A stretch of DNA of 64,000 nucleotides from Fervidicoccaceae archaeon (GCA_038734945.1 JAVYOA010000002.1:310001-374000); one strand, 5' to 3'. Shown: positions 5,811-49,630, numbered from the stretch's first letter. Translations and numbers: made by a program. Notes: a model not told the origin generated them from the letters alone.

Positions 5811-5932
5811 CGCCGGGGGCGGGATTTGAACCCGCGCGCCCCCAACGGGACAGTAGGTCTCTCTCCTTCTGCCGGAAACCTCCATTGCCCTGGTCTCGAG
5901 CCTACCGCCTTAGACCGCTCGGCCACCCCGGC
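5811..5932 (-). tRNA. tRNA-Ser(CGA) with a 36-nt intron at 37/38 (intron 5859-5894); CCA not encoded
   Basis: Reverse complement: GCCGGGG acceptor, GTAGG-CT-CGA-G[intron]A-CCTAC anticodon arm, long variable arm, GGTTCAAATCC T-arm, discriminator G. Confidence 0.92.
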
Positions 5933-25425: not shown

Positions 25426-27285
25426 CTATGTTGTTCGATGCTTCTGCATGGAAGGATGGGCTATGCTTGTGCTGAACAGCCGAAGCTCCTTCTCAGTAGG
25501 AAAAATCTTTATTGTGATCCTTTTTCTGTCCGTCCTCAATATGCCTGTTCCAATCGGAAAGTTGGCGAGGAGCTCTGACTCAGCATCTGATAGCTTGTAG
25601 ATCTCCTTTATTAGATCTGTTCCTTGGGGCTCCTGCTTTAGAAGCAGGACTGTAGAGGATTGCTCCAATATTGCTCTTCCCTGTATCTTCAATGCAAGAT
25701 CCTCCGCCCTTTGAGTAATATATAGAAAAGCGATTCCGTGCTTTCTCCCCCTCCTAGCTATTCCTTCAAGGAGAGATGCTATGCTGGGAGTTTCCATGAG
25801 GAGCCATGCTTCATCTATGAATAGAACGCTCTTCTCTGCTCTGCTAAGAAGCTTGTTGTAAGTATATGGTGCTATCATTGCTGTTATCAAAAGCTTAATT
25901 CTCCTGCTCTTTATCCCCCTCATCCCAAAGATCACAGATCCTTTCAATTTGGGAGATGTTCCTTCGAAGACATTGGAGTCAGGTGGGATCCCTGCCCCCT
26001 GGAGATATCTGCGGATCTCTGGGCTCTCAGCTCTCTCTATGACCTCCATCAGATTTCCCGAGCTTCTTGCTCCCCTGAATAGCTCCTTTCTGAGGATCCC
26101 CTGAAGTCTCTCTGGAATTCCATATATTTCAGCTAGGATTTCGGATAGCTGTTCAATCTCTATTGCTCCTTCCTTCATCAGCTTTACAGGATCTAGACCG
26201 AGCTTCTGCGACTCCTGGATCTCCACTGCCTCGGCACCAAATACCTCAGCAATTCTAGAGTACTCGCTCTCTGGATCAATACCAACAATAGGGATAGTTG
26301 GATCCATGCTTCTGAGCCTGCTGAGATACAGCTTTGCTGCCATGCTCTTCCCTGATCCTGTGGTTCCCAATATCGCGAAGTTGTAATTGTGCTTGCTCCA
26401 GAGGTCAAGGAGAATTGGAGAGCCCGTTCCTGAAAAGCCAAGAAATACTCCTCCTGGGTCAAAAAGCTCCTCATCGATCAGTGGGAAAAGGGCTTTCATG
26501 CTCTCTCCGCTTGTATAGCTCCTCTCTGCACAGAGAAAGCCCAGACAGGTTTCAAAGTTGTAGAGCTCTTTCTGAATGGGGACGGCCTCAGCATCTAGGC
26601 CAAAGCCTCTGAGCAGTGCTCTGAGCCTCCTCTCTTTCTCGTTCAGGTCATCCATTCCTGGAGATGTAAGTATTAGAAGAAAGAAGAGTTCGATCAGAGA
26701 TGATCCTGACATTATACTTGAGGCCAGTTCCTCGAGAGCCATGGCTTCCCAAGTCTCTTCGGTTCCTCTTCCTCCATTTATTTTCCTTCTTCTTGCCATC
26801 TCTAAAAACGGCAGAGCTCTATCTTTTCCAATTTCTCTGAAGATCAGTGCTATCTCAGATGCTTCGCTGAGGAGAACATATGCAAAACCTTCAGGAAGGA
26901 GGGAAGAATATCTATAGACAGTGAGTACCCTGGCAAGCATTCCGTTTTCAAGAACCAATGTAAATGGGTTCCTCAGACCAATTGATCTAGGCCGATGAGG
27001 TGGCTCAACCTTTCTTGCATTGAAGTGAAGAACATGTGTTCCTGACTTCACCCTCAGATAGAACTCATTTCTAAAAACTGGAATGCTATAGCTCGAATAT
27101 GAAAATGTGTCCTCTATCCTTCTAACGAGGAGGACTCCTTGCTTTGCATTGCTCAATAGAGATGAAAACTCAGAGAGCGCTATGTCTCTTTCCTGAGATG
27201 GAAGAATTGCGAAGCTAACTCCTTGCAGCAAATACCAGTCATGTTCTCCTCCTTTTCTCCATTTTTTATTGAATTTGCCCAGCAT
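25426..27285 (-). CDS. VirB4-like (type IV secretion / TedB-CedB class) ATPase
   Basis: GVFLG..G.PI.LD, Walker A GTTGSGKS, IDPESEY, Walker B IDEAW, ARRGRK.G....TQ, G.G.L. Confidence 0.85.
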   Translation of the reverse strand: MLGKFNKKWRKGGEHDWYLLQGVSFAILPSQERDIALSEFSSLLSNAKQGVLLVRRIEDTFSYSSYSIPVFRNEFYLRVKSGTHVLHFNARKVEPPHRPRSIGLRNPFTLVLENGMLARVLTVYRYSSLLPEGFAYVLLSEASEIALIFREIGKDRALPFLEMARRRKINGGRGTEETWEAMALEELASSIMSGSSLIELFFLLILTSPGMDDLNEKERRLRALLRGFGLDAEAVPIQKELYNFETCLGFLCAERSYTSGESMKALFPLIDEELFDPGGVFLGFSGTGSPILLDLWSKHNYNFAILGTTGSGKSMAAKLYLSRLRSMDPTIPIVGIDPESEYSRIAEVFGAEAVEIQESQKLGLDPVKLMKEGAIEIEQLSEILAEIYGIPERLQGILRKELFRGARSSGNLMEVIERAESPEIRRYLQGAGIPPDSNVFEGTSPKLKGSVIFGMRGIKSRRIKLLITAMIAPYTYNKLLSRAEKSVLFIDEAWLLMETPSIASLLEGIARRGRKHGIAFLYITQRAEDLALKIQGRAILEQSSTVLLLKQEPQGTDLIKEIYKLSDAESELLANFPIGTGILRTDRKRITIKIFPTEKELRLFSTSIAHPSMQKHRTT

Positions 27286-27328: not shown

Positions 27329-29323
27329 TCAAAGCAGAAAGTCCCAGGAAGCGGAGGGCCTTTTTCTCTTGTGCCTCTCGACGCTATCGCCTTGCTCGAA
27401 TTCTTCTGCCATTAATTTTATGCTATTTCTCAAAGCTTCTTTTCCCCTTTTCAGTACTCCCTCTTTATCTTCAATAGCGCTGTTTCTAAGCTCTTTCCAG
27501 CTCATGCCAGAGGCTTCTTTTAAAAGATGCTCCATTTCATTTGACATATCCTGCTCATTTCCTGCCTCATTTAGTTCCTCCTGCTTTCTTGGAAAGCCAA
27601 CCTTTTGCTTCATCGAAGCAATTCTCTCTGTTTCACTATTTTCCTTCCTTTTCAGCATCATCGGTGAGAGAAGAAAAGAATCTGATTTTCTGCTCAATGC
27701 ATTCCAATCACTAGCATCGTTCTTTTTCGCTCTGCGCTCCTTTTCTCCATGGAGCATGAGTCTGGTGATCCCACTTCCCGGGGGCTCTGAGCTGTACCTC
27801 TCTCTCAAAACTTTGCTGTTGGCGGAACTTATTGCCTTTATGGATCCTCTGTAGAGGGATCCTCCAACGGATGCAATTTTCTCTCCAACAAACGATGCCA
27901 TTCCGCCTCCAAATGCTCCCAGGAGACTGGGGACTATTCCTACTATAATAGGATAGAGAATGGCAAAAGTCACTTCTTTTGCAGGGAGGAGGGAGTTCAG
28001 AACTACTAGGAATATAGAGGTGAGGGGACCTGCTAAAAGAAGACCTGCGAAGATCCCTAGAATATGCTTCACAGATGCTCTCAATGCTGGATGCAGGTAA
28101 GCAATGCTCAACAAGGGAGAGGAGGAGACAATTGTGAGGAGGAGAACATATCTAGCGTATATAACAGTGCTGGAAACTGTTAGGAGAAAAGCAAGCATGG
28201 AGCCGTAGTTTGCCGCGAATGGGATGGCATATCCTAGTATTACACTGAGAGCCAGCTGCCCTGCAATCCATGAGAACACCCATCCAATATCTATGCTGCT
28301 CACAAAATGAAGCGATATTGTATTAAGCATGCTTGCTGTGGCGTTATATACTGAGGGGGCAAGGAATGCTAATGCTACTGCTGCTGAAGCATCCTTTATC
28401 GAATCAATCAGAGCTGAGAAGAAGTTATCCTCTCTGAATGCTCTTGCTGCGATATCGAAGGATAGAAACAGGCCTAGAAATCCCATGGAGGCCTTCAGTA
28501 TATATTCATAGAGATCGTGGAGCTCTCCGCTCTCAGGCATTATGGGAGCTGCTGCCAGCTTTCCTAAATCTAGCACGGGGAAAATTATGCTGGCGAACTT
28601 GTAGAGAGGGCAGAGCAGGCTGAAGGGCCAGTCAAAGGGGCAATACTCACTGTTCTGAATCATTATTGTGAATTCATTGAAGCCCTTTTCTTTATTATCA
28701 GAGACGTTTGCAGTCACTGTATATGCTCTGCTCATTTCTGTTGAGTTGAGTGCCGGATAGGAGTGAGAAAAAAGAATTTCATTGGAATTGGCAACACCAG
28801 TGCTAAATGTTCCGTCGCCCCAATCCACAGAGACGGTATAGGGAGGAGATCCCCCGCTCCATCTGATGGTCAGGTTGAAGGTGAGCTGGTCTGGTGCTGT
28901 TAGAGAAGTTGATGATGGATAGACCTCGACTGCTATAGCTCCTCCTATGTTCCCTCCTGCAAGACTGAACGAGAAGTAGCCCAATCCTATGAAGAGGATG
29001 CTCGCTATTAGGCTCCAGTATCCTTCTCTTCTCCCGATTGCTATGTAAATGGAGGATGAAGCAAGCATAATTCCTGCTAGTACATAGAATATCCAGAGAT
29101 AGCTGGAGGAAGAGCTAGGTGCACCATAAATTGCCTCAATCACGCCCCATCCAAAAGATGCCACAAGGATTGAGGAGAGGCCAAAGACAATGTAGCGGGA
29201 GTAGTTCTCCTTTCCAAGAACTCCAAGCATGATGCCGAAAAGGAGGCTTCCCGCCCCTAGAGCCTCACCTATCCAAAGGGCATAATCGATGAGCTTCAGA
29301 AGCAACCCGTATGAGCTCTCCAT
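27329..29323 (-). CDS. VirB6/TrbL-like polytopic membrane protein with N-terminal pilin-like hairpins and a PKD/Ig domain
   Basis: 4 N-terminal hydrophobic segments, PKD signature GGSPPYTVSVDWGDG..SHSY...YTVT..VSD, ~7-8 TM core, charged C-terminal tail; directly upstream of VirB4. Confidence 0.65.
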   Translation of the reverse strand: MESSYGLLLKLIDYALWIGEALGAGSLLFGIMLGVLGKENYSRYIVFGLSSILVASFGWGVIEAIYGAPSSSSSYLWIFYVLAGIMLASSSIYIAIGRREGYWSLIASILFIGLGYFSFSLAGGNIGGAIAVEVYPSSTSLTAPDQLTFNLTIRWSGGSPPYTVSVDWGDGTFSTGVANSNEILFSHSYPALNSTEMSRAYTVTANVSDNKEKGFNEFTIMIQNSEYCPFDWPFSLLCPLYKFASIIFPVLDLGKLAAAPIMPESGELHDLYEYILKASMGFLGLFLSFDIAARAFREDNFFSALIDSIKDASAAVALAFLAPSVYNATASMLNTISLHFVSSIDIGWVFSWIAGQLALSVILGYAIPFAANYGSMLAFLLTVSSTVIYARYVLLLTIVSSSPLLSIAYLHPALRASVKHILGIFAGLLLAGPLTSIFLVVLNSLLPAKEVTFAILYPIIVGIVPSLLGAFGGGMASFVGEKIASVGGSLYRGSIKAISSANSKVLRERYSSEPPGSGITRLMLHGEKERRAKKNDASDWNALSRKSDSFLLSPMMLKRKENSETERIASMKQKVGFPRKQEELNEAGNEQDMSNEMEHLLKEASGMSWKELRNSAIEDKEGVLKRGKEALRNSIKLMAEEFEQGDSVERHKRKRPSASWDFLL

Positions 29324-29612
29324 GCTGACTTCACTCTGTTCAAATGTGCTTTACTGGAAGAACGATAAGCAGGCTTCTTCCTCTCGGGTTTTCTCTATCG
29401 ATAATTTTTCCTTCCTATCTGCCTTTACTGGAAATCTGCCTTTTCCCAATTTCTCAAAAGATGAATTCCGGGAGGCAAAATCATCAACGATGAGGGGGGA
29501 AAGCTGCTGAAGCGTAAAAGGAGAGATATAGCTATTCAAGGGGGATCTCCATTTATAGGAATTCCCTTAAAAAGTTCCTCCTCAAATCATCTTTTAAGGG
29601 ATCCTTTTTTGA

Positions 29613-29927
29613 TTGGGAATCCAAATGGAGTTCGAAGCAAGATACATAAAGTTCATCTGGGTCAGGAACATTTCTCTGCTGAATGAAAAGGCTATTGGAA
29701 TTCTCAGAATGAAGCATATAGTTAGCATATTCATGACAATAGTTCTTCTTTGGGGCGGGCATGGAGAAGGATTGACCTCTTCCTGCATGGGATTGAGCCT
29801 TCTAATTTTCACAGCTCTCTCTGCACTTCTCAGCAATGGAGCAATGAGCTTTGAATCCAAAATAATAGCGCTATTGTATTCCTTCATTGAGCTCCTTTTG
29901 AATATAGCTGGGAGGAGAGACAATTGA
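29613..29927 (+). CDS. Small 2-3 TM membrane protein, VirB3/PrgI-like
   Basis: ISLLNEKAIGILRMKHIV followed by hydrophobic helices; its stop overlaps the start of the next ORF (TTGA). Confidence 0.5.
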   Translation: MGIQMEFEARYIKFIWVRNISLLNEKAIGILRMKHIVSIFMTIVLLWGGHGEGLTSSCMGLSLLIFTALSALLSNGAMSFESKIIALLYSFIELLLNIAGRRDN

Positions 29928-31711
29928 GAATCAATTTGCAATACTCCGTGAAGAGCTTCATCGAGCTTCCGCAGGAAATAGAAGAATTTTCATTGAGCCC
30001 CTTTGATCTGGAGAGCATAATCGCAAAGGGATTCGCTCTTCAACCTAGAATATCCTTGGATGGCATCCATGGAGATACATGGATAGGAAAGAGTAGCTGC
30101 GAGAGGGAGGTATTCATAAACAAGGATAGAGCCATATGCAATCCACTAGCAGGCTTTTCACACGAGAAGTTCGGAGTGGCTTTGACAAAGAACGGAAAGA
30201 AGTTCAGAGTTGAGGGGGGTGACGGATTGAAGCTGGAGGGTGAGAAATGCTCATATATGGAGGTTCCAGGAGCAATTATCATTTCAATATATGAGAAGCC
30301 ATATGCTCATATCGTAACATCCGACTATCTCTACGGTTTGAATGTTCATGAGAGGGCATACAGAGGGGAGCCGAGATCTGCTTCGGCTGGCTACAGAGCC
30401 TATACCACAATCTATGCTGACGGAAGGAGCCAGATATTCTGGGGAGGAAAAATAGAGGAAACCGGCATGCTCGCTCAGAGGGCATTGAGAGTTCAAAATT
30501 CAACATTTGTCCTCTCCTCTAGATGGTTAGTAAGGCTGGAGGAAGATCTTCCGAGACCTTTGGTCTTTCTTGGAGAAGAAGCTGATTTTCTGGGCCTCAT
30601 TAACGAGCAACCGGTATTCATGATAGGAGGAGCTCCCTATAGACTTGAGGAGGCCTCTCTTATTCCATTGAGACGCGTTGGAAAGCTTTCTCCTTCAGCT
30701 TCAATCTCAATCTACGATATAGCTGTTGTTTCCCTTCCGGGATGGCTCACAGTATATGATGAGGAGGAGAAAGAGATTCTGAAGGTTTCAAAGGGGGAGG
30801 ATTCTTGGTGCTGGGCAGTTAGGAAGAGCGTATTCTGCTGCACTAGAGGGCTATGCGGCGAGATCTCGGAAGGATCGTCGCAAATTTTTGTGAATGCTGA
30901 GAATTCTGAGGAAAGAGATCGCCATTCCATTGTTATAGATACGGAAGTCCCAGTGGTCATAGATGAAAATGGAGAAGAAAGGCTTCTCAGACCAGGAGAA
31001 AATGCCAAAATTAGCAGAAGCGATGTGAGTATTTTTGAGCCCTACATTTTCGATGTTAGGCTGAGGCACATTCTAGGAGCCGCCTCAGCTCCTATTCCCT
31101 CATCCCCCAGGAAAATCAAGCTGGAGGCAGAGGCAAGAGTGTTTGAGAGCACAGGGATCCATGAGTGCGGAAGGCCTTTTTTCCTTGAAGTAGAAGTTCT
31201 ATCCTTAGAAGCTCCGATGGAAATCAGGCTCTTTATTGAAGGAAAAGAAGTCAAGAGAGGTGAGAAGCTCGAGCTTTGCTTGGAAGAGCTTCCAGATTTT
31301 CTGCATCCCAGAGCATTTGATCCCGTTACCCAGAGATCGATTGAACTTGATCCTCTTATTGTGAACAGAGTGTTTGTGCATGAGCCCAGCCTGGGAATTG
31401 AGATCGAGCACCATGAGGGGAGAAGCGAGATCCTGCTGAAGACAAATGCTGAAGAGGTGAGAGGAAAGCTGATATGCAGCAACAGAGAATTTGGGCTGAA
31501 AATTCCCAAAAGCTTAATTGAGAACTGCCAGCTCCCTGCTTACTTCAGCTTGGAGCTTAGAAAGAACGGCTTTATATATCAGAGGAGGAAGGATATAGTA
31601 ATTGAAGACCTTGACGAGGACATTGTGAAAAAGCTGAAGAATGGAGAGAACGAGAGCAGAATTGGCGGATTTCTGATTCGATATTATGCTTCTCTCGGTC
31701 CTAGCTCTTAG
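29924..31711 (+). CDS. Uncharacterised 595-aa beta-rich protein (propeller-like N-terminus?)
   Basis: Long ORF with native codon style, many short beta-strand-like segments, no TM segment or signal peptide. Confidence 0.65.
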   Translation: MRINLQYSVKSFIELPQEIEEFSLSPFDLESIIAKGFALQPRISLDGIHGDTWIGKSSCEREVFINKDRAICNPLAGFSHEKFGVALTKNGKKFRVEGGDGLKLEGEKCSYMEVPGAIIISIYEKPYAHIVTSDYLYGLNVHERAYRGEPRSASAGYRAYTTIYADGRSQIFWGGKIEETGMLAQRALRVQNSTFVLSSRWLVRLEEDLPRPLVFLGEEADFLGLINEQPVFMIGGAPYRLEEASLIPLRRVGKLSPSASISIYDIAVVSLPGWLTVYDEEEKEILKVSKGEDSWCWAVRKSVFCCTRGLCGEISEGSSQIFVNAENSEERDRHSIVIDTEVPVVIDENGEERLLRPGENAKISRSDVSIFEPYIFDVRLRHILGAASAPIPSSPRKIKLEAEARVFESTGIHECGRPFFLEVEVLSLEAPMEIRLFIEGKEVKRGEKLELCLEELPDFLHPRAFDPVTQRSIELDPLIVNRVFVHEPSLGIEIEHHEGRSEILLKTNAEEVRGKLICSNREFGLKIPKSLIENCQLPAYFSLELRKNGFIYQRRKDIVIEDLDEDIVKKLKNGENESRIGGFLIRYYASLGPSS

Positions 31712-31929: not shown

Positions 31930-32537
31930 ATGTCCGAAAAGCTCTATACAATCAAGGAGGCGAAGAAGCTTCTTGGAGTCACCACCTGGACTATTCAGCA
32001 ATGGGATAGGCAGGGCAAGATTAGGTGTGTTAGAACTGTGGGGGATGAAGGAGGATCCCTGAAAGTGAAATAAAACGCATCCTTGGTTTAAGAGAGGAAA
32101 GAATTGTCGTAGGGTATGCAAGGGCTTCATCTTCAGCACAAAAGGATGATTTAGAAAGACAGAAACAACTTATTTCAAGCTACGCTAAGGAGAAAGGTTA
32201 TGGTGAAATTCAAGTTTTAACGGATGTTGGTTCTGGACTTAACGAAAAAAGAAAAAACTTCCTGAAACTCTTAGATATGGTTTCGGAAAGGAAAATCTCT
32301 AAAGTTATAGTCGCTTACGAAGATAGGCTCACGAGGTTTGGTTTTGAAACCTTAAGGAAAATGTTCTCAGCTTTCGGAACAGAAATAGAAGTAATAAATC
32401 ATGAAGGGAAGACACCTCAAGAAGAGCTTGTGGAAGACTTAATCACCATAGTTTCCCACTTCGCTGGAAAGCTCTACGGTATGAGGTCACACAAATATAA
32501 GGAGGTTGGCGAAGGTGTCAAGAAGCTTGTTGGTTAA
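31930..32537 (+). pseudogene. tnpA: IS607 serine recombinase TnpA, frameshifted
   Basis: MerR-like HTH (YTIKEAKKLLGVTTWTIQQWDRQGKI) stops at 32071-32073; catalytic part ([36 protein letters not shown]) is in another frame after TGA 32046-32048. Confidence 0.88.
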
Positions 32538-33717
32538 GGCATACTCAATACCGCATAACCTTGAGGTAAACGGGCTTATAGAGGATTACATGCGTGTCCT
32601 CAACGCTATCTTGGAGGATCTATGGAAGAACATTGCATGGGAGAGGAGGGGTAAGAGGCTTATACCGTTTCCTAGGAAGGACAAGACCTTCAGGAAGGAG
32701 CTTAGGGACAAGTACCTTAAGGGTTGGGTTTATTCCAAGCATTACGTGGACTCCGCGATTAAACAGGCTTATTCCGTGCTCGAGTCCTGGAGGAAGAGGT
32801 ACCTCCGCGGGCGGGCTGGAAGAAGAAGACCTGAGTTGAAGAGGAAGTTCGTGAGGGTCAAGGAAACCCTCTACAGCTACAGGGATGGTGTGCTCAGGAT
32901 TTCGATTAAACCCTATGAAGAAAGCGTGACCGTAGATTTGAGGAAGGCGTGGTGTTTGGATAGGATAAGGGGATTGGAGCTCGGCGAACTCATACTTAAA
33001 CAGGACAGGCTCATAGTTACTGTTAAAAGAGAGGTGGAGCTAAAGATTAAAGACCCAATATCATGGGACACGAACCTCTTAACCTTAGATGGCTTTGATG
33101 GTGAAAAGCATTACTCGATAAGCCTGAAGGAAATCTACACAATTCATAGAACCTATGAGCTGAAGAGAAGGATTATCCAGAAGCTACATGGAAAAATGAG
33201 GAAGAAGCTCCTGGAGAAGTACCGCTCGAGGGAGAGGAACAGGATTGACGACGCGCTGCACAAGCTGGCCAGGCAGCTCTCAGGCAGGACAAATATCTTT
33301 GAAGACCTGAAGAACTTCAAGGAGAGGGTGGCTAGGACGAAGAATAGGAGCATGAACAGGCAGAACAGCAAGCACGACTACATCAAACTGCAAAAGTATG
33401 TGGAATACAAATCTGCGTGGAATGGTTATGCTACCATATATGTGAAGGCGAAGGGCACCTCGAAGACCTGCTCCAAATGCGGGTACTACAACAAAGACCT
33501 AAGGGGAGCAGTCTTCAAGTGCCCAAAATGCGGACTTGTAATCGATAGGCAGAGGAATGCATCAATAAACATTTGGAAAAAGTTCCTTAGGATGTGGGGA
33601 TTCATGGGTTCACCCCGAAAGGAGCTAACCCCGATGAGCCCTCCAATGAACCCTGAGGAGGACAAGAGGGATGAAGCTCAAGGACTAAGTATGGATTCCA
33701 TACGTATCCACACTTAG
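32506..33717 (+). CDS. tnpB: TnpB RNA-guided nuclease family protein
   Basis: RuvC-I SWDTN, RuvC-II FEDL, Zn finger [14 protein letters not shown], RuvC-III region [10 protein letters not shown]; start may be GTG 32515. Confidence 0.92.
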
Positions 33718-34159: not shown

Positions 34160-34534
34160 ATGGCAAAAAGGAGCATTTCCTCGATTTTGGTAGCAATCGC
34201 CATGACATTGATTATTCTTGGTATGTTCACAGCAATCTACAGCAAACTGGAATTTTCTACAAACGCTCTTCGGGAAAAAACTCAGAGCTCAATATCTATG
34301 GCCACAGTCCTAGCTCTCAGGAATGGAGATAGAAACTATGAAGTTATCATATACAATTACGGTGATAGAATCATTGAGAAAATGACAATAGCATATAGCA
34401 ATGGCACTGCAATTGAGTATGAGAATGTCTCTTCAATAAAGCCAAAATCTCTGGTAACGCTGGTTGTCAGTGGAATCCCAATTTTCTATATGGATGCTGC
34501 TGGGGAAACAGGCAGAATAGAGGTGGTCAACTAG
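34160..34534 (+). CDS. Type IV (class III signal) minor pilin
   Basis: MAKRS|ISSILVAIAMTLIILG hydrophobic helix; IYNYGD beta-sandwich motif. Confidence 0.75.
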   Translation: MAKRSISSILVAIAMTLIILGMFTAIYSKLEFSTNALREKTQSSISMATVLALRNGDRNYEVIIYNYGDRIIEKMTIAYSNGTAIEYENVSSIKPKSLVTLVVSGIPIFYMDAAGETGRIEVVN

Positions 34535-34968
34535 TGAGAACCAGGGCCCTTGCAGAAGCCATGGCCATAGTGCTAATAGCGATTGTCTCTCTCCTTTTCA
34601 CCATTTTTCTGAGCACAGTGAATGAGAGAATCGCTGGAGAAACTGCGGAGAGAGCAGAAATGGTCAGCGATATGTCGCTCAGGAGCGTGGAGACTCTGTA
34701 CTTAAGCTTAAGCGAGAGTCATCCGTGCATAAAGAGCAATTTGAGGACTCAAATAGTGGCGCTCATTTTCTTCAGTCCAAATACGACGGAGCTATACAGG
34801 CATGATTCCAACCCGATCGAGGTCCAAGTAGGCTCCTGCATTCAGCTGAGCGAAATAGAATCGAAATCTCTCAAAGGTGTATGGAAGCTTCTCGTGATAA
34901 CTGTCCGCGGAAACGTCCACAGCTGGAACTCCACATTTCAGATTCAAGGTGTGAAGATTGAACCATAG
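34534..34968 (+). CDS. Type IV (class III signal) minor pilin
   Basis: MRTRA|LAEAMAIVLIAIVSLLF; C-terminal VITVRGN. Confidence 0.75.
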   Translation: MRTRALAEAMAIVLIAIVSLLFTIFLSTVNERIAGETAERAEMVSDMSLRSVETLYLSLSESHPCIKSNLRTQIVALIFFSPNTTELYRHDSNPIEVQVGSCIQLSEIESKSLKGVWKLLVITVRGNVHSWNSTFQIQGVKIEP

Positions 34969-36763
34969 GGGAATTGCGGAGGGAATTGGCGTCATTCTTT
35001 TAGCCCTGATGCTTACATCCTTCATCTCCATTTTAGCCTACGGAACGAGGCATGCAGAGAGCATAATCAGAACTGAGAGCAGCATCCAGTCAATATTAAG
35101 CTTGAGAAGAGCAGAGAGGATAGTATTTGGGGTAAATGGAAGCACATTGCTGGCAAAGAGCACTATTGAAACTGAGGCAGTTATGCTAGTAGTTTTCTGG
35201 AGCAATACTGTTTACTATTCCAATGAGAGCAGAATCCCTCTGCAACCTGGAGACTGGACTCTCCTTCCATTGCCACAGGAAGTAGCAGCTCTCATACTTT
35301 CATCAGGAAATGCTTCTCTAGGAATAATAACTCGCTACGGGAACTTCTTCGTTTTCACTCCGAATGATCTGGGCTCAATGAATGCATCGGTAAATCAAAT
35401 TCAATTTCTGAGATCTGGGGTCCTGCAGAGGGCAGGGAGCTTCAGTATTTACTATGTTGGAAATAGCTCGGCAATATATTCCTCATATCAAGCGACTGTG
35501 AGCGGTACATATGTAAAAGATTATTCAATGGGAAATGTTTTTGCCTCGCTCTCTATGTCCCTCAGCTCCTTTACTCCAATTTGGTCCCCCATTCTCATAT
35601 TCTATTCAGGAGATGTCTCCATAACTGAGAAATGGAACTGCAGCATTGTGAACGTGACTGTGGAAGATAGGGCTGGAGGAAAGATCAGCTTCTCTGCCTA
35701 TGCTAATGGAACGCTTATCAATAAGAGCACTGTGAATACCACGCAGGGCAGGTCGCTCAAGCTATTTTTATTTGATTTCTCATCGCAGAAGTACTCGAGC
35801 TCAGACGTGAAGATATTCTCGCTTCCAAGCGGTCCTGAGGTCTATGTCGTTTCAATAGTTCCCGTTCTATTCTCTGGGAGCTTCTACATTTACGCTACTT
35901 CGATTCTAGATGGAAGCTTGCTTTCCCTCAGCTACGGATCTCAATCCTCCAGCTCAAGCTCCTATTTATCCCCTCCAGGGAACATGGCTACTCCGAGCTA
36001 CATATATGCTGGATTTGTGAGCTTGATAGAGGGGGGATCTTACATCTATTATGATGGGAGCTTCAATTCCAGAACATCATCTCCCCACAGCATAAGCATT
36101 GAGCTGATAGACCAATCAACTCTTTCTGCCGCGATTGCTACAATCAATGTTGCTACCGCACTGCTTACAGACTACTATGGGGCTGGATATATAAGCTTCT
36201 TGGAACCTCCGGTGAATGTCAGCATGACTGGATTCAGCACTGTAATAAATGCGAAATCCTGGGATCTAAACAGGACTCCTGGAAGCTCAAACAGTTACTA
36301 TCAAGCACAATCTAGCATAACTTTTCCTGGAAGCTGCAGCGCCCAGGTCCTGGGAAAGATCTCGCTCTCAATTTCGTTCACAAATGCGGGAGGAAGCGCT
36401 ATTAATGGACCTCAGCCTAGTCCTCCACCCTACATCCCTACAGCACCTCCGTCGATATACTACATTCAGACTCCGATGCCAATGAATGGCACATCAATAG
36501 CAACGACAGTCTACTTATATGCTGAGAGAATTAACAGCAATCTCACTGCTAACTACATTAAAATAAATTTGGAGGACGGATCTTCTGAGAGCTTTTGGAA
36601 CGTTCCCTTCTCGATTATTTCCTCTCCGATAGGAGAGGTGTATGGGATAGCAATACCTCTAGATGGAGATTCTCGATATTCTTTGAGCATAACTGTGCTC
36701 TTTAACGGACAGAGGCTGGCGTATGGAACATTCTACAATTATCTTGCTCCATCTAATCCTTGA
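34958..36763 (+). CDS. Large pilin-like adhesin (class III signal, Ser/Thr-rich, many N-x-S/T sites)
   Basis: MNHRG|IAEGIGVILLALMLTSF; IITRYGN matches the motif in the preceding pilin; long extracellular-type C-terminal region. Confidence 0.72.
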   Translation: MNHRGIAEGIGVILLALMLTSFISILAYGTRHAESIIRTESSIQSILSLRRAERIVFGVNGSTLLAKSTIETEAVMLVVFWSNTVYYSNESRIPLQPGDWTLLPLPQEVAALILSSGNASLGIITRYGNFFVFTPNDLGSMNASVNQIQFLRSGVLQRAGSFSIYYVGNSSAIYSSYQATVSGTYVKDYSMGNVFASLSMSLSSFTPIWSPILIFYSGDVSITEKWNCSIVNVTVEDRAGGKISFSAYANGTLINKSTVNTTQGRSLKLFLFDFSSQKYSSSDVKIFSLPSGPEVYVVSIVPVLFSGSFYIYATSILDGSLLSLSYGSQSSSSSSYLSPPGNMATPSYIYAGFVSLIEGGSYIYYDGSFNSRTSSPHSISIELIDQSTLSAAIATINVATALLTDYYGAGYISFLEPPVNVSMTGFSTVINAKSWDLNRTPGSSNSYYQAQSSITFPGSCSAQVLGKISLSISFTNAGGSAINGPQPSPPPYIPTAPPSIYYIQTPMPMNGTSIATTVYLYAERINSNLTANYIKINLEDGSSESFWNVPFSIISSPIGEVYGIAIPLDGDSRYSLSITVLFNGQRLAYGTFYNYLAPSNP

Positions 36764-36813
36764 AGGATTTTTTCTAGCTTTTAAAGCTCTCCTTCATCTT
36801 CTGGGGATGAAAA

Positions 36814-37095
36814 ATGCATTTGCACTTCTACATTCTGAGCTTCTTCTTAAAGTTAGAGTCCCAGGTATTTACAGTATCTCCGGAGCCTCCTCCTGGAATA
36901 AGCGAGGCAATCATGAAGCTGCTTTCATGGTTAGCCTGGATAGGGTGGGTATCAGTTGCTGCTGCTTTAATTGCAGGGGGAATTAGCCTAGTCCTTGGCT
37001 ACATGGAAAGAGGAAAGAGGCTGATTCTTGGAGCCATTCTTGGAGCCCTGATTCTGGCATTCTACAGCGCTATTATCTCAGGGCTCATAGGATAA
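36814..37095 (+). CDS. VirB2/TrbC-like conjugative-type pilin (CedA1/TedC-like)
   Basis: Leader, Pro-rich linker, then two hydrophobic helices joined by a basic loop (ERGKR); no class III signal; own TATA-like TTTTAAAG at ~36779. Confidence 0.62.
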   Translation: MHLHFYILSFFLKLESQVFTVSPEPPPGISEAIMKLLSWLAWIGWVSVAAALIAGGISLVLGYMERGKRLILGAILGALILAFYSAIISGLIG

Positions 37096-37154
37096 ATATA
37101 CAGAGATTTTTTTGCCCTTTTTTAAGCCCCTTTTACTCTCTTGGAGGGATATAC

Positions 37155-37616
37155 TTGAGAAAAATCTGCAGAGCAAGAAAAATGAGGGGGATGAGCTCGG
37201 AGCTCATAGTAATGATATCCGTGGTCCTCATAGCGATGGTAGCAGTCTTTGCTCTTAGAGGATGGCTCTCCACCCAGCTAGGGAGGATGGGCAACATAGA
37301 CATGGCAGAGGCAACCTTCACCAGCACTTCAGTCAATCCAAGTAGCATGGTTATTGTAATTAATGTGAAGAATCTCCTTCCGAACCAAATAAGCATCATA
37401 GGATTTCAGATACTTCTCTCCAATGGAACTGTGCTCACTGGAAATTCAGCAGGTATTTCAACTTCGCCTGCCCTTCCAACAGCAGTAGCAGGAAAATCCG
37501 ATGGACTCTTAACCGTGTTCCTGAACAACATGCAGAATAGCATTCTGAAGATCAGCGTGAATGTTCAAGACAATTCGACTGGACAGACACAGTGGATTTC
37601 TGCGGTTGGAAGCTAA
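37155..37616 (+). CDS. Probable major type IV pilin
   Basis: RARKMRG|MSSELIVMISVVLIAMVAVF; INVKN beta domain; own TATA-like TTTTTAAG at ~37119. Confidence 0.78.
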   Translation: MRKICRARKMRGMSSELIVMISVVLIAMVAVFALRGWLSTQLGRMGNIDMAEATFTSTSVNPSSMVIVINVKNLLPNQISIIGFQILLSNGTVLTGNSAGISTSPALPTAVAGKSDGLLTVFLNNMQNSILKISVNVQDNSTGQTQWISAVGS

Positions 37617-37647
37617 CTTCTCGGTCCTCATGGGGAGGCTAAAAATA

Positions 37648-39066
37648 ATGGGGATCATCCTGGAAAGAAAATTTTTCTCTGAAAAAGAAAGGAAAGTAGG
37701 GACACTTTTTTGTAGTGAGGATAAGCACCTCCCCCCTGAAAGCTCCACCCCGCACGAAAATCTTCCTTTGAGGTATAGAGTAGGAGCATATGATGTTCAA
37801 ATAGTGAGGAGCAACGGTGTTTATGAGTACCGCATATGTACAAAGAAGGAGCTGGGCGATCTTCATAATCTCATAGAGTCCAGGCTAGAGGAGATAATTC
37901 TCCTCATGAGAAAAGGGGCAGATGCAGGAGATGTTCTAACAAGCGTGCTCGGAATTCCTAGAGAAAAGGTCCCTGATGCCTTGTTTGTGCTCAGGAGCAT
38001 TCTTGAATATGGGAAAATCCAGGCTCTGCTCGGCGATGCTCACATCCAGGATATAAGCATTGAGGGGGCTGATAGAGTATGGATAAGGCACTCGCTCATT
38101 GAAAAAATGGATGAGGATCAGGACTTCATTCCTACCAATATATTTTTTCAGAGCGTTGAGGAGGTGCTAGTGCTGCAGCAGATAATTGCAACGAAATGCA
38201 ATGTCTACGTCTCCATGAGCAATCCCATTGTGGAGGCACAGCTTCCAGCTGCAGATGGAGGACATAGGGTTCACCTAGTCTTCCCATCTATATCTCAGAA
38301 CAGACCTGAAATAGTAATAAGAAAGAGACTGCAGCGCCCTCCAAGCATTAAGAATCTCTCCGAGAGGGGGGTAATCCCAGATGCTGCTGTGGAGCTTCTA
38401 AGGGGAATAATTGCTGCCAGAGCTTCAGCAATAATAGCAGGACCACCTGGTTCAGGAAAAACTACACTTCTCAGAAGCATACTTCACTACTTGGTACCGA
38501 GAACATGGAAGGTCCTCGTAATTGAAGATACAGGCGAAATAGATCCGCCTCCAGGGTCTCCTTGGACAAAGTACACAACGTTTGAGCTAGGTTCAGTGAA
38601 AATAGATCTTTTCGATCTGGCCAAGGCCTCTCTCAGGGCTTCAGGAACAAAGATCATAGTTGTTGGTGAGACGAGAGGCTCTGAGGCACAAGTCCTCTCC
38701 CAGGCAATGCTTGTGGGATTGGGAGCGCTCACAACTTTCCATGGGTCCAGCCCAAGCGAAGTCATCTCCAGGCTCATGAGCCCTCCAATCAACTTGAGGG
38801 CTCCCCAGATAGGAATGTTCCAATATTTGTTCGTACTTGGATTTGGAAAATCTCCGAGAAGGCAGCTAAAGTCACTGTCGGAGCTAAGCTACAGCGTAGA
38901 GAAGAAAATGGTTGAGCATAGAGTGATTTGGTCCAGGGAAGTTGATGGAATGAAAATTGACCCCGAGGAAATGCTTCGTAGGAGTGAGAGGTGGAAGGAG
39001 CTTCTGAAGAGGTCAATGGATGCTTCACATGGTGGAGATGAAGTTGAGGATCTCGCACAAGCTTAG
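37648..39066 (+). CDS. Type II/IV secretion-pilus assembly ATPase (TadA/CpaF/VirB11 family)
   Basis: IQDISIEG, Walker A GPPGSGKTT, Asp box IEDTGEI, Walker B IVVGETRG.EA, His box TTFHG; start after GGAGG RBS. Confidence 0.92.
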   Translation: MGIILERKFFSEKERKVGTLFCSEDKHLPPESSTPHENLPLRYRVGAYDVQIVRSNGVYEYRICTKKELGDLHNLIESRLEEIILLMRKGADAGDVLTSVLGIPREKVPDALFVLRSILEYGKIQALLGDAHIQDISIEGADRVWIRHSLIEKMDEDQDFIPTNIFFQSVEEVLVLQQIIATKCNVYVSMSNPIVEAQLPAADGGHRVHLVFPSISQNRPEIVIRKRLQRPPSIKNLSERGVIPDAAVELLRGIIAARASAIIAGPPGSGKTTLLRSILHYLVPRTWKVLVIEDTGEIDPPPGSPWTKYTTFELGSVKIDLFDLAKASLRASGTKIIVVGETRGSEAQVLSQAMLVGLGALTTFHGSSPSEVISRLMSPPINLRAPQIGMFQYLFVLGFGKSPRRQLKSLSELSYSVEKKMVEHRVIWSREVDGMKIDPEEMLRRSERWKELLKRSMDASHGGDEVEDLAQA

Positions 39067-40492
39067 GGAATCCTGCAGAAGGCATCTGATATCACTGTAT
39101 CCGGGAGTTGAGGAATATGCTGGAGCTAGGAGAAGGCTGAAAATCCTCTGCATTTTAACAGCGACTTCTCTTGTCATGATATCAATTGAGCTTGCTTTTA
39201 GAGCAAGCGCCTTCCCTCTCCTTATCCCCCTTCTCCTCTTTCCAATATTGACTGCACTTGAGATTTCTGCTGCTTTTGTGAGGAAAGCTCTGCTCAATGA
39301 AAGGCTTGAGCAGGAGCTTCCATTCCTGGTAGTTGCCTCTGCCTCTTTTTCCAGAACTGGGCTCGAGCTATCAGAGCTTCTAGAGCATGTTGCCAAGAGC
39401 AGCGTTTTCAGAGGAGCAAGGATGATAGGCGAGAAATACATAATTCTATCGAGATTATTTGGAAGGAATCAGGCCCTGAACTTTATCTCCAAAATTATTT
39501 CAGGAAAGAGCAGGTTCCTCCTATCGGAGTACAGCGTTTCTCTTTTAATAGGAACGTCAGTTCAGTTTCTCAGAGAGAGGGCAGGCGATATACTTAAGAG
39601 CTCAGAGACAATGGTTGACAGGGCAATCCAGCTCAGAGCAACAATTGCAATGATAGCAATAGTTCTCTATGGCCTATTTCCCAGCATCCTCATTGGAATG
39701 GCATTTATCCAGTCAATGAGCATCAGTGAGAGTGAAAACAGCTCTGGCTCCTTGGCCCTGCTCACAATGGGATTGACTTCCGCTAGCTTGCCTGCTGTTT
39801 TAGCTGCAATACCAGACTATCCTCTTTCCATGCTAGTTCTACTGTCCCAGAAGGCAAGCAAAATCTTTAGGGCTCTCTTCATAATTGGACTTATTGCTTT
39901 GATTTTGCCATCAGTGCTCCTCATCTATTTTCCGGAAGAGAGCTTCTCAGAGTTCGCTGTGATCTCTGCTGCAATCTCATGCATTCTCGGCATCCCATCT
40001 TTCTTTTATCCTCTTCTCTCAATTATAACTAGCAAGGTCGATCTCATAGCAGAGGAAATGTTGAACCATGCGAGAGTATGGAGGAGCCTTCACTTATTCA
40101 GATCCGCTGAGCTCGAAAGATTGGAAAGAAGGGATGTGAAGCCATGGATAGCAGAATTCATTGCTGAGATGCTGGAATTCTTCAGGGGCCTGGGAGACTG
40201 CAATCCCTCAATATTCGAGACTTTCGTTTCATTTATCAGTGAGAGCAGGAGAAGTGCTATGCGATTTACTATGAGTCTAGTACTCCTCATGATAGCTTCC
40301 ATAGCTTCCCCTATAATGAATGCAATGATTATCAGAATTTCTCCAGCCCCCAATAGCTCTCTATTGCTATCAGGGTATGTGAGCACGATTGCCATGGGAT
40401 TAATCGCGGGAAAGCTCTCCATAGGTAAAAACATGAGCACTTTTCTCCCGTCCATTTCCGCAATGCTCTATATCATTCTCGCCCCTCTCTGA
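39020..40492 (+). CDS. TadB/TadC-like pilus platform membrane protein
   Basis: Multi-TM protein with LEQELPF...S..G..L motif; directly follows the ATPase. Confidence 0.78.
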   Translation: MLHMVEMKLRISHKLRESCRRHLISLYPGVEEYAGARRRLKILCILTATSLVMISIELAFRASAFPLLIPLLLFPILTALEISAAFVRKALLNERLEQELPFLVVASASFSRTGLELSELLEHVAKSSVFRGARMIGEKYIILSRLFGRNQALNFISKIISGKSRFLLSEYSVSLLIGTSVQFLRERAGDILKSSETMVDRAIQLRATIAMIAIVLYGLFPSILIGMAFIQSMSISESENSSGSLALLTMGLTSASLPAVLAAIPDYPLSMLVLLSQKASKIFRALFIIGLIALILPSVLLIYFPEESFSEFAVISAAISCILGIPSFFYPLLSIITSKVDLIAEEMLNHARVWRSLHLFRSAELERLERRDVKPWIAEFIAEMLEFFRGLGDCNPSIFETFVSFISESRRSAMRFTMSLVLLMIASIASPIMNAMIIRISPAPNSSLLLSGYVSTIAMGLIAGKLSIGKNMSTFLPSISAMLYIILAPL

Positions 40493-40523
40493 GCATAATC
40501 TACCTGAATTTTCATGGAAGGGG

Positions 40524-42509
40524 ATGGATTTTGCTTTTCAAGAAGCCAATGGTTTATCCCATCCAGAAAAGATTCTCTCATATTTTATCTGCGTGATCAA
40601 GATGCTCCTCGAGATATTTCCCAGACTAAAAGGGACAAAGCTCAACATCAACATCTTAGGACCAAGCTTCACATTCTGCATAATGAAAGATTCCGCTAAG
40701 CTCCACATACTGCTGGATACATCGACGTCGCCAAACACACTGCGAACCTACTTTGAATCTAGGCAGTTTAGCTACGATAATTTCCTGGAAGCACTAGGAA
40801 GATCAGTCTATGCATCTGAGGCAAGGCTCAAGAGAGAGGAAGATTTTTGGCTTGGCAATTTCAGCATCTCAGATCTTCCGGGAACTATGGATTCACTTGA
40901 CTATCCATCTGCTGTGTGCTTATCTATCTCGAGGAGCTTGGAGCTCAGCAGGATTTTTTTGAAGCATTCAGCAGGACTCATCAAGAGGGCATCGAAAAAC
41001 GGAGATTACTTTCTCAGATCACAGGCTGAAATCTTTCGAAATATTATGAATAGGGTCCTACTCTTGAAATTAGTTCTGCTGGCTGGGGGAAGAGAAGATA
41101 TTAGAAAAATAGAGAAGCTGATTGATTCCCTTTCTATCGCTAAGCTCAGCTGGATGCGACACATTGTGAATACAAGTCAAGAAATATCGGAGCTTCTGAA
41201 GCCCCCCACAATTAGCCTTTTCGAAACTCTCATTGGGAAGACTAGAAAGATAACAGTTCTCGAGGAAAATTTGAGAGAGATGATTTTCCTTCCGGATCCC
41301 TCCATTTACAGAATAGACTTTTCCAGAGGTTCCCCTCTGCCCCTTCTCTCTGCAGAGAGAGTTGGAAAGAGAGCGTTCAGGATTGGTCTGCTTGAGAATG
41401 GAAAGGAGTTTAGATTGAGCGTTGAGGATCTCTACAGGCATACATACATAATTGGACGAACTGGCTCAGGAAAAACCAGCTTCATGAAGCTCCTAGTTCA
41501 CAGGATGAATGATCTGGGCGATCTCTCGCTGATTGTCGTGGATCCTCACGGAGATATGGCTAAGGAGCTTGCCGAGGAAGCTGCAAATTCAAAATATTTC
41601 CATCCAATCAACAGCCCGTTTGGCATAAACCCCCTTGATTTGCCGAATATGAATAGCAGAGAGCACGCTGTTTCAATAGCTGTGGATGTTGCTCTAGAGA
41701 TCTTCAGGGATGTGCTTAGACTCACTGAAAGCGCTGTGAATGTTAAATACATGCTCCAGGTGATCCTCAGAATTCTGTATGAAAAAAATGACTCGCCAAC
41801 TCTCGCGCAGCTCTATGATATGATATTGGATCTTCATGAGGGGAAAATAGAGAGGATCACAAGCGATGAAAAATGGGAAAAGCAGCTCAGAGTTCTTCAG
41901 AGGATGCAGAGCCAGAGCTTCATCTCAGCTCTCTCGAGGCTGGAGCCATTTGCACATGACAAGCTCCTCCTTAGAATAACCAGCAGAACAACTGTTGATT
42001 TCAGCGAGCTCATGCAGCCAGGGTCTCTTGCTCTATTCTCTGTTCCCAAGGCTGACCTTGGAGAGCACCTAGCTAAGCTCATTGCATCAGCTATAATTAT
42101 GAAGCTCTGGTTTCAAATTCTTGCGAGAGCGAGAAGTGATGAGAAGAGAACTCCCGTGTTCTTGGTTGTGGATGAATTCCAATTCATAGCTGATTTCCCG
42201 ATTATTGATACTATTCTATCGGAAGCTAGAAAGTTCGGGTTGCATTTAGTGATGGCCCACCAACACACTGGACAGATCTCGAGGGAACTATTTCAGTCAA
42301 TTATGACCAACTGCGCTGTGAAAGTCAGCTTCGCAGTCGAGGGGGAAGATGTAGCAAGACTCTCCACAATGGATGCTGCTTTTTCAGAGGCCATAGAGAG
42401 AAGCCTTGGCTCCCTCACTGTTGGAAAAGGCATTGTAAAAATAACTGGAAATTCTGGAGAGCAGCAGCCGCCTCCTGCAATCGTTACCTTTGATTATATT
42501 GAGAAATAG
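40524..42509 (+). CDS. VirD4/TraD-like coupling-protein ATPase (HerA/FtsK superfamily)
   Basis: RHTYIIGRTGSGKT, VVDPHGD, INPL, VVDEFQ, LSEARKFGL.L.MAHQ...QI, N. Confidence 0.8.
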   Translation: MDFAFQEANGLSHPEKILSYFICVIKMLLEIFPRLKGTKLNINILGPSFTFCIMKDSAKLHILLDTSTSPNTLRTYFESRQFSYDNFLEALGRSVYASEARLKREEDFWLGNFSISDLPGTMDSLDYPSAVCLSISRSLELSRIFLKHSAGLIKRASKNGDYFLRSQAEIFRNIMNRVLLLKLVLLAGGREDIRKIEKLIDSLSIAKLSWMRHIVNTSQEISELLKPPTISLFETLIGKTRKITVLEENLREMIFLPDPSIYRIDFSRGSPLPLLSAERVGKRAFRIGLLENGKEFRLSVEDLYRHTYIIGRTGSGKTSFMKLLVHRMNDLGDLSLIVVDPHGDMAKELAEEAANSKYFHPINSPFGINPLDLPNMNSREHAVSIAVDVALEIFRDVLRLTESAVNVKYMLQVILRILYEKNDSPTLAQLYDMILDLHEGKIERITSDEKWEKQLRVLQRMQSQSFISALSRLEPFAHDKLLLRITSRTTVDFSELMQPGSLALFSVPKADLGEHLAKLIASAIIMKLWFQILARARSDEKRTPVFLVVDEFQFIADFPIIDTILSEARKFGLHLVMAHQHTGQISRELFQSIMTNCAVKVSFAVEGEDVARLSTMDAAFSEAIERSLGSLTVGKGIVKITGNSGEQQPPPAIVTFDYIEK

Positions 42510-43225: not shown

Positions 43226-43301
43226 TGCGGCGGCCGGGATTTGAACCCGGGATTGCCGGCGTGGCAGGCCGGCGTCCTAATCCAGGCTAGACGACCGCCG
43301 C
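43226..43301 (-). tRNA. tRNA-Gly(GCC); CCA not encoded
   Basis: Reverse complement GCGGCGG...CCGGC-CT-GCC-AC-GCCGG...GGTTCAAATCC...CCGCCGCA. Confidence 0.96.
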
Positions 43302-44788: not shown

Positions 44789-46290
<1,502 letters not shown>

Positions 46291-46427
46291 GGTGGCTACA
46301 GGAGGTTGGGGGGATATGACCTTGGTGGGACTGCAGAGCCACTTCTCGCGCGGCCTATCTATTTCCATGCAGCTCGAGACAATGTCTCGGGCGAAGGGCT
46401 GAGGGAGGAGAGATCATCCTCTCAATG

Positions 46428-49630
<3,203 letters not shown>

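Follow-up and report, generated by a model that had tools for sequence, protein, structure and literature searches.

Tandem pilin-like hairpins in a VirB6/TrbL-like protein

We analyzed a 64,000-nucleotide (nt) stretch of DNA from a Fervidicoccaceae archaeon (GCA_038734945.1 JAVYOA010000002.1:310001-374000; this whole stretch is referred to as the window, and coordinates are counted from its first letter), focusing on the VirB6/TrbL-like protein P0001 and its likeness to P0002, a small pilin-like protein encoded in the same window. P0001 begins with two transmembrane (TM) hairpins that, as judged by profile comparisons, are tandem two-TM modules with an ancient paralogous relationship to the VirB2-like pilins of the system. 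We lean toward reading P0001 as a platform protein of the VirB6/CedA/TedA type from a VirB4-type DNA-transfer apparatus of Fervidicoccaceae/Desulfurococcaceae, in which the hairpins would serve as tethered pilin mimics at the base of a pilus. A pilin-like N terminus of a VirB6-type protein has already been published; the duplicated module and the PKD insert are the new part. An earlier interpretation of this DNA (the sequence-only reading) had described P0001 as starting with copies of the locus's own pilin, followed by a PKD domain. The open reading frame (ORF) coordinates and the strings that it cited are correct by ORF and translation check, and map to residues 9-67 (N terminus), 75-101 (YLWIFYVLAG...IGRREG), 167-171 (DWGDG), and 228-239 (CPFDWPFSLLCP) of P0001. 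The segment of P0002 that it quoted corresponds to residues 34-93, and the conserved part begins further upstream, at PPPGIS. The two proteins are laid out as follows.

27329..29323, minus strand: whole gene of P0001, a 664-amino-acid (aa) VirB6/TrbL-like membrane protein (ORF and translation)
29120..29323, minus strand: hairpin 1, pilin-like TM hairpin (residues 1-68; helices 2-35 and 41-66)
28943..29119, minus strand: hairpin 2, pilin-like TM hairpin (residues 69-127; helices 76-96 and 100-122; loop GRREG)
28649..28942, minus strand: PKD-like beta-sandwich domain, predicted extracellular (residues 128-225; DWGDG at 167-171; sequons N150, N193, and N206)
28607..28645, minus strand: linker YCPFDWPFSLLCP (residues 227-239)
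27821..28606, minus strand: helical TM core, TrbL/VirB6-like (residues 240-501)
27329..27820, minus strand: charged C-terminal tail, presumed cytoplasmic (residues 502-664; a disordered stretch, then helix 591-653)
36814..37095, plus strand: P0002, candidate free-standing VirB2-like pilin of 93 aa (signal-like N terminus, PPPGIS, two-TM hairpin, ERGKR loop)

The likeness between hairpins and pilins is clearest when whole families are compared. In HHalign profile-profile alignments, hairpin 1 (residues 1-68, 45 sequences) matched 55 pilins over 63 columns with a probability of 98.6 (E value, 7.1e-16), hairpin 2 (residues 69-127) matched the same pilins over 45 columns with a probability of 96.3 (E value, 1.8e-9), and the two hairpins matched each other with a probability of 95.8-96.2. 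Both the alignment of the N terminus with the pilin encoded at 36814 and the presence of a second, weaker hairpin, as seen in the sequence-only reading, are thus borne out at the family level. With shallow alignments, hairpin 1 matched the pilin at a probability of 96.3, while hairpin 2 reached only 1.2 against the pilin and 8.6 against hairpin 1; this early lack of support for hairpin 2 was overturned by the deeper alignments (45-46 family sequences and 55 pilins). As a control, six TM windows from the core of P0001 were aligned with the pilins and gave probabilities of at most 1.4. None of 100 column shuffles and none of 100 block shuffles attained the real score, nor did any of 40 block shuffles run for each of three comparisons; the maxima from shuffling or reversal were ∼20-24, versus real scores of 40-73. 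The block shuffles preserve the TM/loop layout. At the family level, the likeness is robust and exceeds chance.

Searches with hidden Markov models (HMMs) gave a similar picture. Across 790 ORFs from the window and nine related loci, the hairpin-1 HMM found four free pilins with E values of 1.1e-15 to 3.4e-11 (4.7e-13 for P0002), the next non-family ORF scoring 0.12. The hairpin-2 HMM reached the same four pilins with E values of 1.2e-10, 8.4e-8 (P0002), 0.0049, and 0.0079. In the reverse direction, an HMM built from six pilin sequences matched the N termini of P0001 homologues in four related loci (L007, L009, L004, and L003; E values of 4.8e-10 to 3.2e-4) but, among the same 790 ORFs, not P0001 of the window.

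These results bear on the idea that P0001 has nothing to do with secretion and is instead a transporter-like membrane protein whose pilin likeness is noise arising from TM composition. Some sources do name its relatives "carbon starvation protein" or "MFS transporter," and the core belongs to no curated Pfam or NCBIfam family. However, the shuffles, which preserve composition and layout, fall short of the real scores, the other TM segments of P0001 fail to match pilins, and no Pfam CstA or MFS match was found. In addition, the linkage to VirB4-, VirD4-, and pilin-like genes is kept in rearranged orders, and two structural searches, independent of each other, both gave TrbL/VirB6 as the first lead. 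We therefore regard a transporter as hardly credible.

Family, predicted structure, and core of P0001

A protein 100% identical to P0001 is recorded at NCBI from a metagenome-assembled genome (MAG) of a Fervidicoccaceae archaeon, and 14 further homologues with 31-47% identity come from Desulfurococcaceae, Thermosphaera, Desulfurococcus, and metagenomes. A HMMER scan with the family profile extended this set to ∼35 full-length representative clusters of 479-861 aa. Neither P0001 nor P0002 matches any family above the cutoff in Pfam or NCBIfam. The AlphaFold2 (AF2) model of P0001 (46 sequences; predicted local distance difference test [pLDDT], 78.6; predicted template modeling score [pTM], 0.62) consists of four N-terminal helices (2-122), an eight-strand beta domain (131-224), and a helical bundle (234-501), and the hydropathy scan together with these helices describes a polytopic alpha-helical membrane protein. 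Confidence averaged over 10-residue blocks is 94-97 over residues 11-60 (hairpin 1) and dips at the junction of hairpin 2 and the PKD domain (58 for residues 121-130) and in the loop between the hairpins (70 for residues 71-80). The tail, poorly conserved in a 15-sequence alignment, has a pLDDT below 50 at residues 500-561 and 571-589 and ends with helix 591-653.

Most family members share this architecture, with a PKD-size insert in 44 of the 46 aligned sequences and a [WYF]GD[GNS] motif in 42. Two Sulfolobus-type members (P0119 and P0156) have both hairpins but no PKD domain, hairpin 2 being followed by the core after just 21-24 residues, and a single member of the 46 (P0154) has one hairpin plus the PKD domain. 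Each hairpin loop of P0001 carries two lysine or arginine residues, the N-terminal stub and the segment between the hairpins none, and three of the five N-X-S/T sequons lie within the PKD domain. This distribution fits a topology in which the N terminus and the PKD domain would be outside, both K/R-bearing hairpin loops would be cytoplasmic, and the C-terminal tail would be inside.

The core was compared with known folds. In the ESM Atlas, residues 225-500 had a feature score of 0.93 to TrbL_3/4/5 clusters and structural TM-scores of 0.60 and 0.64 to clusters of the "VirB6/TrbL-like CD1112 family." A Foldseek search of the PDB with the full model listed TrwI/VirB6 (7o3v_J) at rank 39 (E value, 0.022; probability, 1.00; TMt, 0.39). 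When a poor core-only model (pLDDT, 56.9) was used, ranks 1-4 and 6 were TrwI/VirB6 chains, with E values of 0.15-0.89, which we treat as a lead only. The VirB6-like assignment of the core made in the sequence-only reading is thus upheld in part: the fold leads and the adjacent VirB4-like ATPase agree with it, while the sequence matches no TrbL/VirB6 profile. By fold leads and context, but not by sequence, the core may be VirB6-like.

The free-standing pilin candidate P0002

P0002 has the form expected of a VirB2-like pilin, i.e., a pair of TM helices with a short, charged loop between them (TM scan and family alignment), probably with both termini outside. Its family comprises 74 clusters, all named hypothetical, from Desulfurococcus mucosus, Thermosphaera, Ignisphaera, Zestosphaera, Thermofilaceae, and others. 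The homologue of D. mucosus, a cultivable relative, is P0208. Many members have a signal peptide ending in an AxA-type site; that of the window's protein is short and uncertain. The Pfam model T4SS_pilin (PF18895) touches 30 of 55 family members (best E value, 4.9e-6) and TrbC/VirB2 (PF04956) touches 5 of 55 (best, 3.5e-5), while P0002 itself has no match to either model at an E value of ≤1. The family member P0019 scores 15.4 bits against the Pfam pilin family, whose cutoff is 26.6. Taking form, weak family matches, and context together, the designation "VirB2-like pilin" is well supported, though not proven.

Proposed role as tethered pilin mimics at the pilus base

If P0001 is a platform of the VirB6/CedA/TedA type, then, by analogy with the VirB6 protein of R388, the hairpins could remain uncleaved in the membrane as permanent pilin mimics. 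Free pilin (36814-37095) would dock onto the tethered hairpins, and these would constitute the base or nucleus of the growing pilus, with the neighboring VirB4-like ATPase as the power source. Outside the cell, the PKD domains would surround the pilus base as a collar for passage through or contact with the S-layer or a partner cell, in a system without VirB5 and VirB7-10. Such an arrangement could have originated by duplication and PKD insertion, elaborating the N-terminal homology known from CedA-CedA1 and VirB6-VirB2. That the hairpins prime pilus assembly is plausible.

The N terminus of CedA is homologous to the pilin CedA1, and the same, weaker homology links the N termini of VirB6 and VirB2 of Agrobacterium tumefaciens (Beltran et al. 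2023, PMC9905601). In TrwI/VirB6 of R388, only helices alpha1 and alpha2 enter the membrane, VirB2 recruitment was mapped to alpha1, and a VirB6 pentamer was proposed as the pilus base (Macé et al. 2022, PMC9259494). The statement of the sequence-only reading that VirB6 recruits VirB2 accordingly corresponds to a published model for R388. A 2025 preprint modeled Gram-positive pili from 10 VirB2-like and 5 VirB6-like proteins (bioRxiv 10.64898/2025.12.18.695078).

A less probable but serious rival remains, namely, that the hairpins are only relics: membrane anchors or insertion signals that are pilin-like by ancestry and by membrane or lipid constraints, without any docking or priming role. Beltran et al. 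explained the likeness of CedA and CedA1 by common descent and a shared export pathway (PMC9905601). Hairpins and pilins share only ∼28% identity, and cognate preference is weak as well. Hairpin 1 scored its own pilin best in just 3 of 6 systems, in two of them by one point, and hairpin 2 in none of the 6; in the window, hairpin 1 scored 64 with the cognate pilin and 63 with another. Given this low identity and the lack of a clear cognate preference, the hairpins are old paralogues and not copies of the locus's own pilin, and the sequence-only reading was overstated on this point. At a domain E value below 1e-3, the pilin HMM recognizes hairpin 1 in only 16 of 46 family members and hairpin 2 in 7 of 46.

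On the other hand, a mere relic sits less well with the conservation of the hairpin loops. G97 of the hairpin 2 loop is invariant in the 46 sequences and G37 of the hairpin 1 loop nearly so, and in the close subfamily R98, E100, and G101 of hairpin 2 are nearly invariant as well, mirroring G62, E65, and G67 of the pilin loop, which suggests selection beyond hydrophobicity. Moreover, alpha1 of the R388 protein, the corresponding helix, is the mapped site of VirB2 recruitment, and on a Sulfolobus plasmid described below hairpin 1 does track its own pilin.

Apart from the low identity, the missing cognate preference, and the limited reach of the pilin HMM, further results weigh against reading P0001 as a VirB6-type platform with tethered pilin mimics. 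The window pair taken alone is similar only marginally beyond chance: BLASTP of P0001 against P0002 gave an E value of 0.029 with 12 of 41 positions identical, and the HMM of 55 pilins matched P0001 with E values of 18 (hairpin 1) and 15 (hairpin 2). The pilin identity of P0002 is itself drawn from subthreshold family matches and context, and searches of PDB sequences with the profiles of the VirB6-like family and of the pilins returned nothing significant, with no CedA1, TedC, VirB2, or VirB6 entry. As for the core, P0001 has no match among the TrbL/VirB6 models of Pfam and NCBIfam, and Pfam TrbL (TrbL_4) hits just one sequence of the 46 in the family, at an E value of 0.05. The Foldseek search of the PDB with the full model had no match at an E value of ≤1e-3, TM-scores to TrwI are only 0.37-0.44, and the core-only AF2 model, built from 7 sequences, is poor (TM-scores of 0.36-0.44 for its top TrwI chains). 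Finally, oligomerization, the binding of pilin by the hairpins, and any function of the PKD domain are inferences.

A more detailed scenario, which we put forward as speculative and rather improbable as a whole, would derive hairpin 1 from a pilin gene fused onto a VirB6-like gene that already carried hairpin 2. The ten hairpins of a pentamer would then supply the two initial layers of the pilus, each of five subunits, so that the filament would be covalently rooted in the platform, and five PKD domains arranged in a ring would take over from VirB5 and VirB7-10 as an S-layer conduit or in partner recognition. The family would also supply the long-missing VirB6 and VirB2 equivalents of at least some Sulfolobus plasmids.

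PKD domain, linker, and the question of processing

The domain following the hairpins was identified as PKD both by family matches and by its predicted fold, as the sequence-only reading had proposed. Family profile positions ∼115-223 match repeats of giant multi-PKD proteins in the HMMER scan, and Pfam PKD (PF00801) matches 25 of 46 members (best E value, 4.1e-9). P0028 scores 24.1 bits, above the 23.5 cutoff, while P0001 itself reaches an E value of only 0.79. The top Foldseek matches of the full model are PKD domains (E values of 5e-3 to 9e-3; probability, 1.00), including ColG (4tn9; E value, 5.2e-3; TMt, 0.72) and 4xed (TMt, 0.66), with root mean square deviations of 3.4-3.7. An archaeal S-layer PKD entry (1l0q) also matched (E value, 7.8e-3); its low TMt of 0.17 reflects the length of the target, a two-domain chain of 391 residues. 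The P0001 domain shares with the PKD domains of archaeal and bacterial surface proteins the beta-sandwich with a WGDG motif, but it occurs as a single copy between TM helices of a secretion-platform protein, whereas those of surface and S-layer proteins form tandem arrays.

The linker between the PKD domain and the core contains C228 and C238, which are nearly invariant in the 15-sequence alignment of the close subfamily. They are absent from distant members of the 46-member family, in which P..WPF or PWF motifs remain, and a WP motif recurs in many of the inspected N termini of the wider family. The Cys pair of the disulfide-like loop described in the sequence-only reading is thus conserved in the close subfamily only and not across the family.

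The sequence-only reading had also suggested that the fused pilin units, if processed, could bring the Ig-type domain to the tip in a VirB5-like role. In its stronger form, the units would be cleaved off and enter the filament, placing the PKD domain at the pilus tip, where it would act like VirB5 as an adhesin or cap. Both termini of the pilin point outward in solved conjugative pili (bioRxiv 10.64898/2025.12.18.695078), and this geometry could accommodate a domain after hairpin 2. Besides the lack of a VirB5 homologue in Pfam/NCBIfam scans of the locus, this is the one point in favor of processing, and there is nothing beyond it. In the alignment, by contrast, no cleavage motif is conserved past hairpin 2 or the PKD domain, and no AxA-type site after either hairpin. 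A conserved linker joins the PKD domain to the core, and the AF2 model has no long disordered linker there; low confidence is confined to residues 124-126 and to the region past residue 500. The dips at the junctions should be taken neither as evidence for a cleavage site nor as evidence for a rigid continuous chain. In addition, the hairpins lack the PPPG extension and the signal peptide typical of free pilins, and in the PKD-less Sulfolobus-type members both hairpins are fused straight to the core. We thus consider release of a tip protein very unlikely. Lying within the chain, with TM helices on both sides and no conserved cleavage site, the PKD domain does not have the character of a separate VirB5-like tip protein. 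The VirB5 fold is helical, unlike the PKD beta-sandwich.

Comparison with known DNA-transfer systems

Archaeal DNA-exchange machines (Ced, Ted, and conjugative plasmids) are poorly understood, and nucleation of type IV secretion system (T4SS) pili on VirB6 is still a model. With two tethered pilin-like modules, P0001 would offer a direct handle on the interface of pilin and VirB6 and a defined construct for multimer modeling and cryo-electron microscopy, and it supports the published idea that the pilin and the VirB6 N terminus share descent.

The closest known systems are CedA, with the pilin CedA1, of the crenarchaeal Ced DNA import system, and TedA, with TedC, of Thermoproteales. They share with P0001 the character of a chromosomal, "domesticated" T4SS-like system, the pilin-like N terminus of the VirB6-type protein, and the pairing with a VirB4-family ATPase; as in TedC, many P0002 homologues bear a cleavable-looking signal peptide. 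P0001 is set apart by the descriptions of CedA and TedA as having ∼7 TM helices and one pilin-like region (PMC9905601), as it has tandem hairpins, a PKD domain before the core, and a tail of ∼160 aa in a total of 664 aa. NCBIfam gave no CedA-type match for P0001 at an E value of ≤0.1, although it may hold no CedA model. Furthermore, the ATPase here is of the full VirB4 type and not CedB plus CedD (PMC11868833), and the pilin gene lies within a type IV pilus (T4P) cluster, unlike those of the CedA/TedA systems. Among bacterial VirB6/TrbL proteins, TrwI of R388 (7o3v) is the best structural lead for the core, and VirB4 is likewise adjacent, but TrwI has no counterpart to the PKD domain or the second hairpin. 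Literature searches turned up no VirB6-like protein that combines tandem pilin-like hairpins with a PKD domain.

Through this family, candidates for a pilin and a VirB6 protein also emerge on a Sulfolobus plasmid, pHGQ25 of S. tengchongensis (CP152369.1; L010 and L011), which carries two copies of a module of VirB4-like and VirB6-like genes. The VirB6-like protein is of the P0119 type, and its two hairpins match the pilin HMM with E values of 1.3e-11 and 4.9e-4. A free pilin homologue (L011, 14658-14978; pilin HMM E value, 1.7e-14) is encoded just upstream of a VirD4-like gene, and hairpin 1 scores 142 against this pilin versus at most 112 against other pilins. The P0119 type belongs to the same family as P0001 (family-profile match; phmmer E value, 3.8e-12) and shares the two pilin-like hairpins and the adjoining VirB4-like gene; it differs in being plasmid-borne, lacking the PKD domain, and having a hairpin 1 much closer to its own pilin. 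A tblastn search of plasmids with P0119 retrieved only two records, both from S. tengchongensis, and we do not extend the observation to pNOB8-type plasmids as a group. For archaeal conjugative plasmids, PMC9905601 describes no recognizable pilus protein, and for a Sulfolobus plasmid only VirB4/VirD4-like proteins and an unassigned membrane protein have been described (PMC12857230). The conserved membrane protein of Sulfolobus conjugative plasmids is described in a review as permease-like with an Smc-like domain (PMC12857230). It may be a protein of the same kind as P0001, whose charged tail ends in a long predicted helix.

Genetic neighborhood

The surroundings of the P0001 gene combine T4SS-like and T4P-like genes.

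25426..27285, minus strand: VirB4-like ATPase, 44 bp downstream of the P0001 gene (Pfam AAA_10, DUF87, and P-loop_TraG)
29613..31711, plus strand: divergent pair of a 104-aa membrane protein (29613-29927) and a 595-aa protein (29924-31711), conserved beside P0001 homologues
34160..40492, plus strand: T4P-like cluster around the pilin gene (N-terminal sequences, TM scan, and Pfam)
34160, 34534, 34958, and 37155, plus strand: four class-III-signal-like proteins (N-terminal sequences)
37561-39066, plus strand: T2SSE ATPase (Pfam, 7.4e-23)
39020-40492, plus strand: polytopic membrane protein (TM scan)
40524..42509, plus strand: VirD4/CedD-like coupling-type ATPase (Pfam TrwB_AAD_bind, T4SS-DNA_transf, and TraG-D_C)

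In NCBIfam, the best matches were VirB4-like CD1110 (1.2e-31) and TraC (8.3e-31) for the VirB4-like ATPase and VirD4-like CD1115 (1e-16) and CedD (4.8e-16) for the VirD4/CedD-like ATPase, and VirB4 has been noted in Fervidicoccales and Desulfurococcus (PMC11868833). The T4P-like cluster has weak NCBIfam matches to UpsB (2.4e-4) and UpsA. No VirB3, VirB5, or VirB7-B10 was seen in the locus in Pfam/NCBIfam scans of the window proteins.

The pilin gene sits inside the T4P-like cluster (34160-42509, plus strand, with the VirD4/CedD-like ATPase at its end), and L002, L007, and L008 show the same combination. Such interleaving of T4P and T4SS-like genes differs from the situation in Sulfolobales, where the Ups pili and the Ced system are encoded separately. 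The P0001 family hence marks a VirB4-type system of Fervidicoccales/Desulfurococcaceae that is physically mixed with T4P genes.

To survey this linkage, we used nine related loci from Desulfurococcaceae-type MAGs, found with the 15-sequence alignment, counting genes within 10 kb of the P0001 homologue. Gene orders vary among them. A VirB4-like gene adjoins the P0001 homologue in 2 of 9 loci (L001 and L004), a VirD4-like gene is near it in 3 of 9 (L004, L007, and L008), and pilin and T4P genes are near it in 3 of 9 (L002, L007, and L008). The 595-aa and 104-aa proteins of the divergent pair are each kept in L001, L002, and L005; neither has a Pfam or NCBIfam family, and the 595-aa protein has no usable ESM Atlas match. 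A minus-strand ORF overlapping this pair (29594-29941) is probably spurious.

A two-TM protein of 74-77 aa with a PLPRGLSDF motif is encoded directly upstream of the VirB6-like gene in four loci (L002, 9731-9955; L003, 9707-9934; L004, 9474-9707; and L009, 487-672) and has no counterpart in the window. Small conserved neighbors of P0001 homologues had no Pfam match; this one may be a VirB3- or CedA2-like accessory protein.

With its housekeeping flanks, the system looks like a chromosomal, Ted-like one. Directly flanking the cluster are tRNA-Gly (43226-43301, minus strand), spermidine synthase (43403-44344, plus strand), and a 16S-23S rRNA operon (44789-49542, plus strand). In L007, spermidine synthase (SpeE) also adjoins the P0001 homologue, suggesting that the position on the chromosome is conserved and that the region is not a mobile island. 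Around the cluster, there was no integrase and no att-like direct repeat, only four short two-copy repeats.

An IS607-like element (32277-33717, plus strand) separates the T4SS/T4P region into two halves and contains a truncated serine-recombinase/resolvase ORF and a TnpB/Cas12f-like ORF. Elsewhere in the window, a 122-nt Rfam tRNA match at 5811-5932 (minus strand), without an ARAGORN call, is possibly an intron-containing archaeal tRNA.

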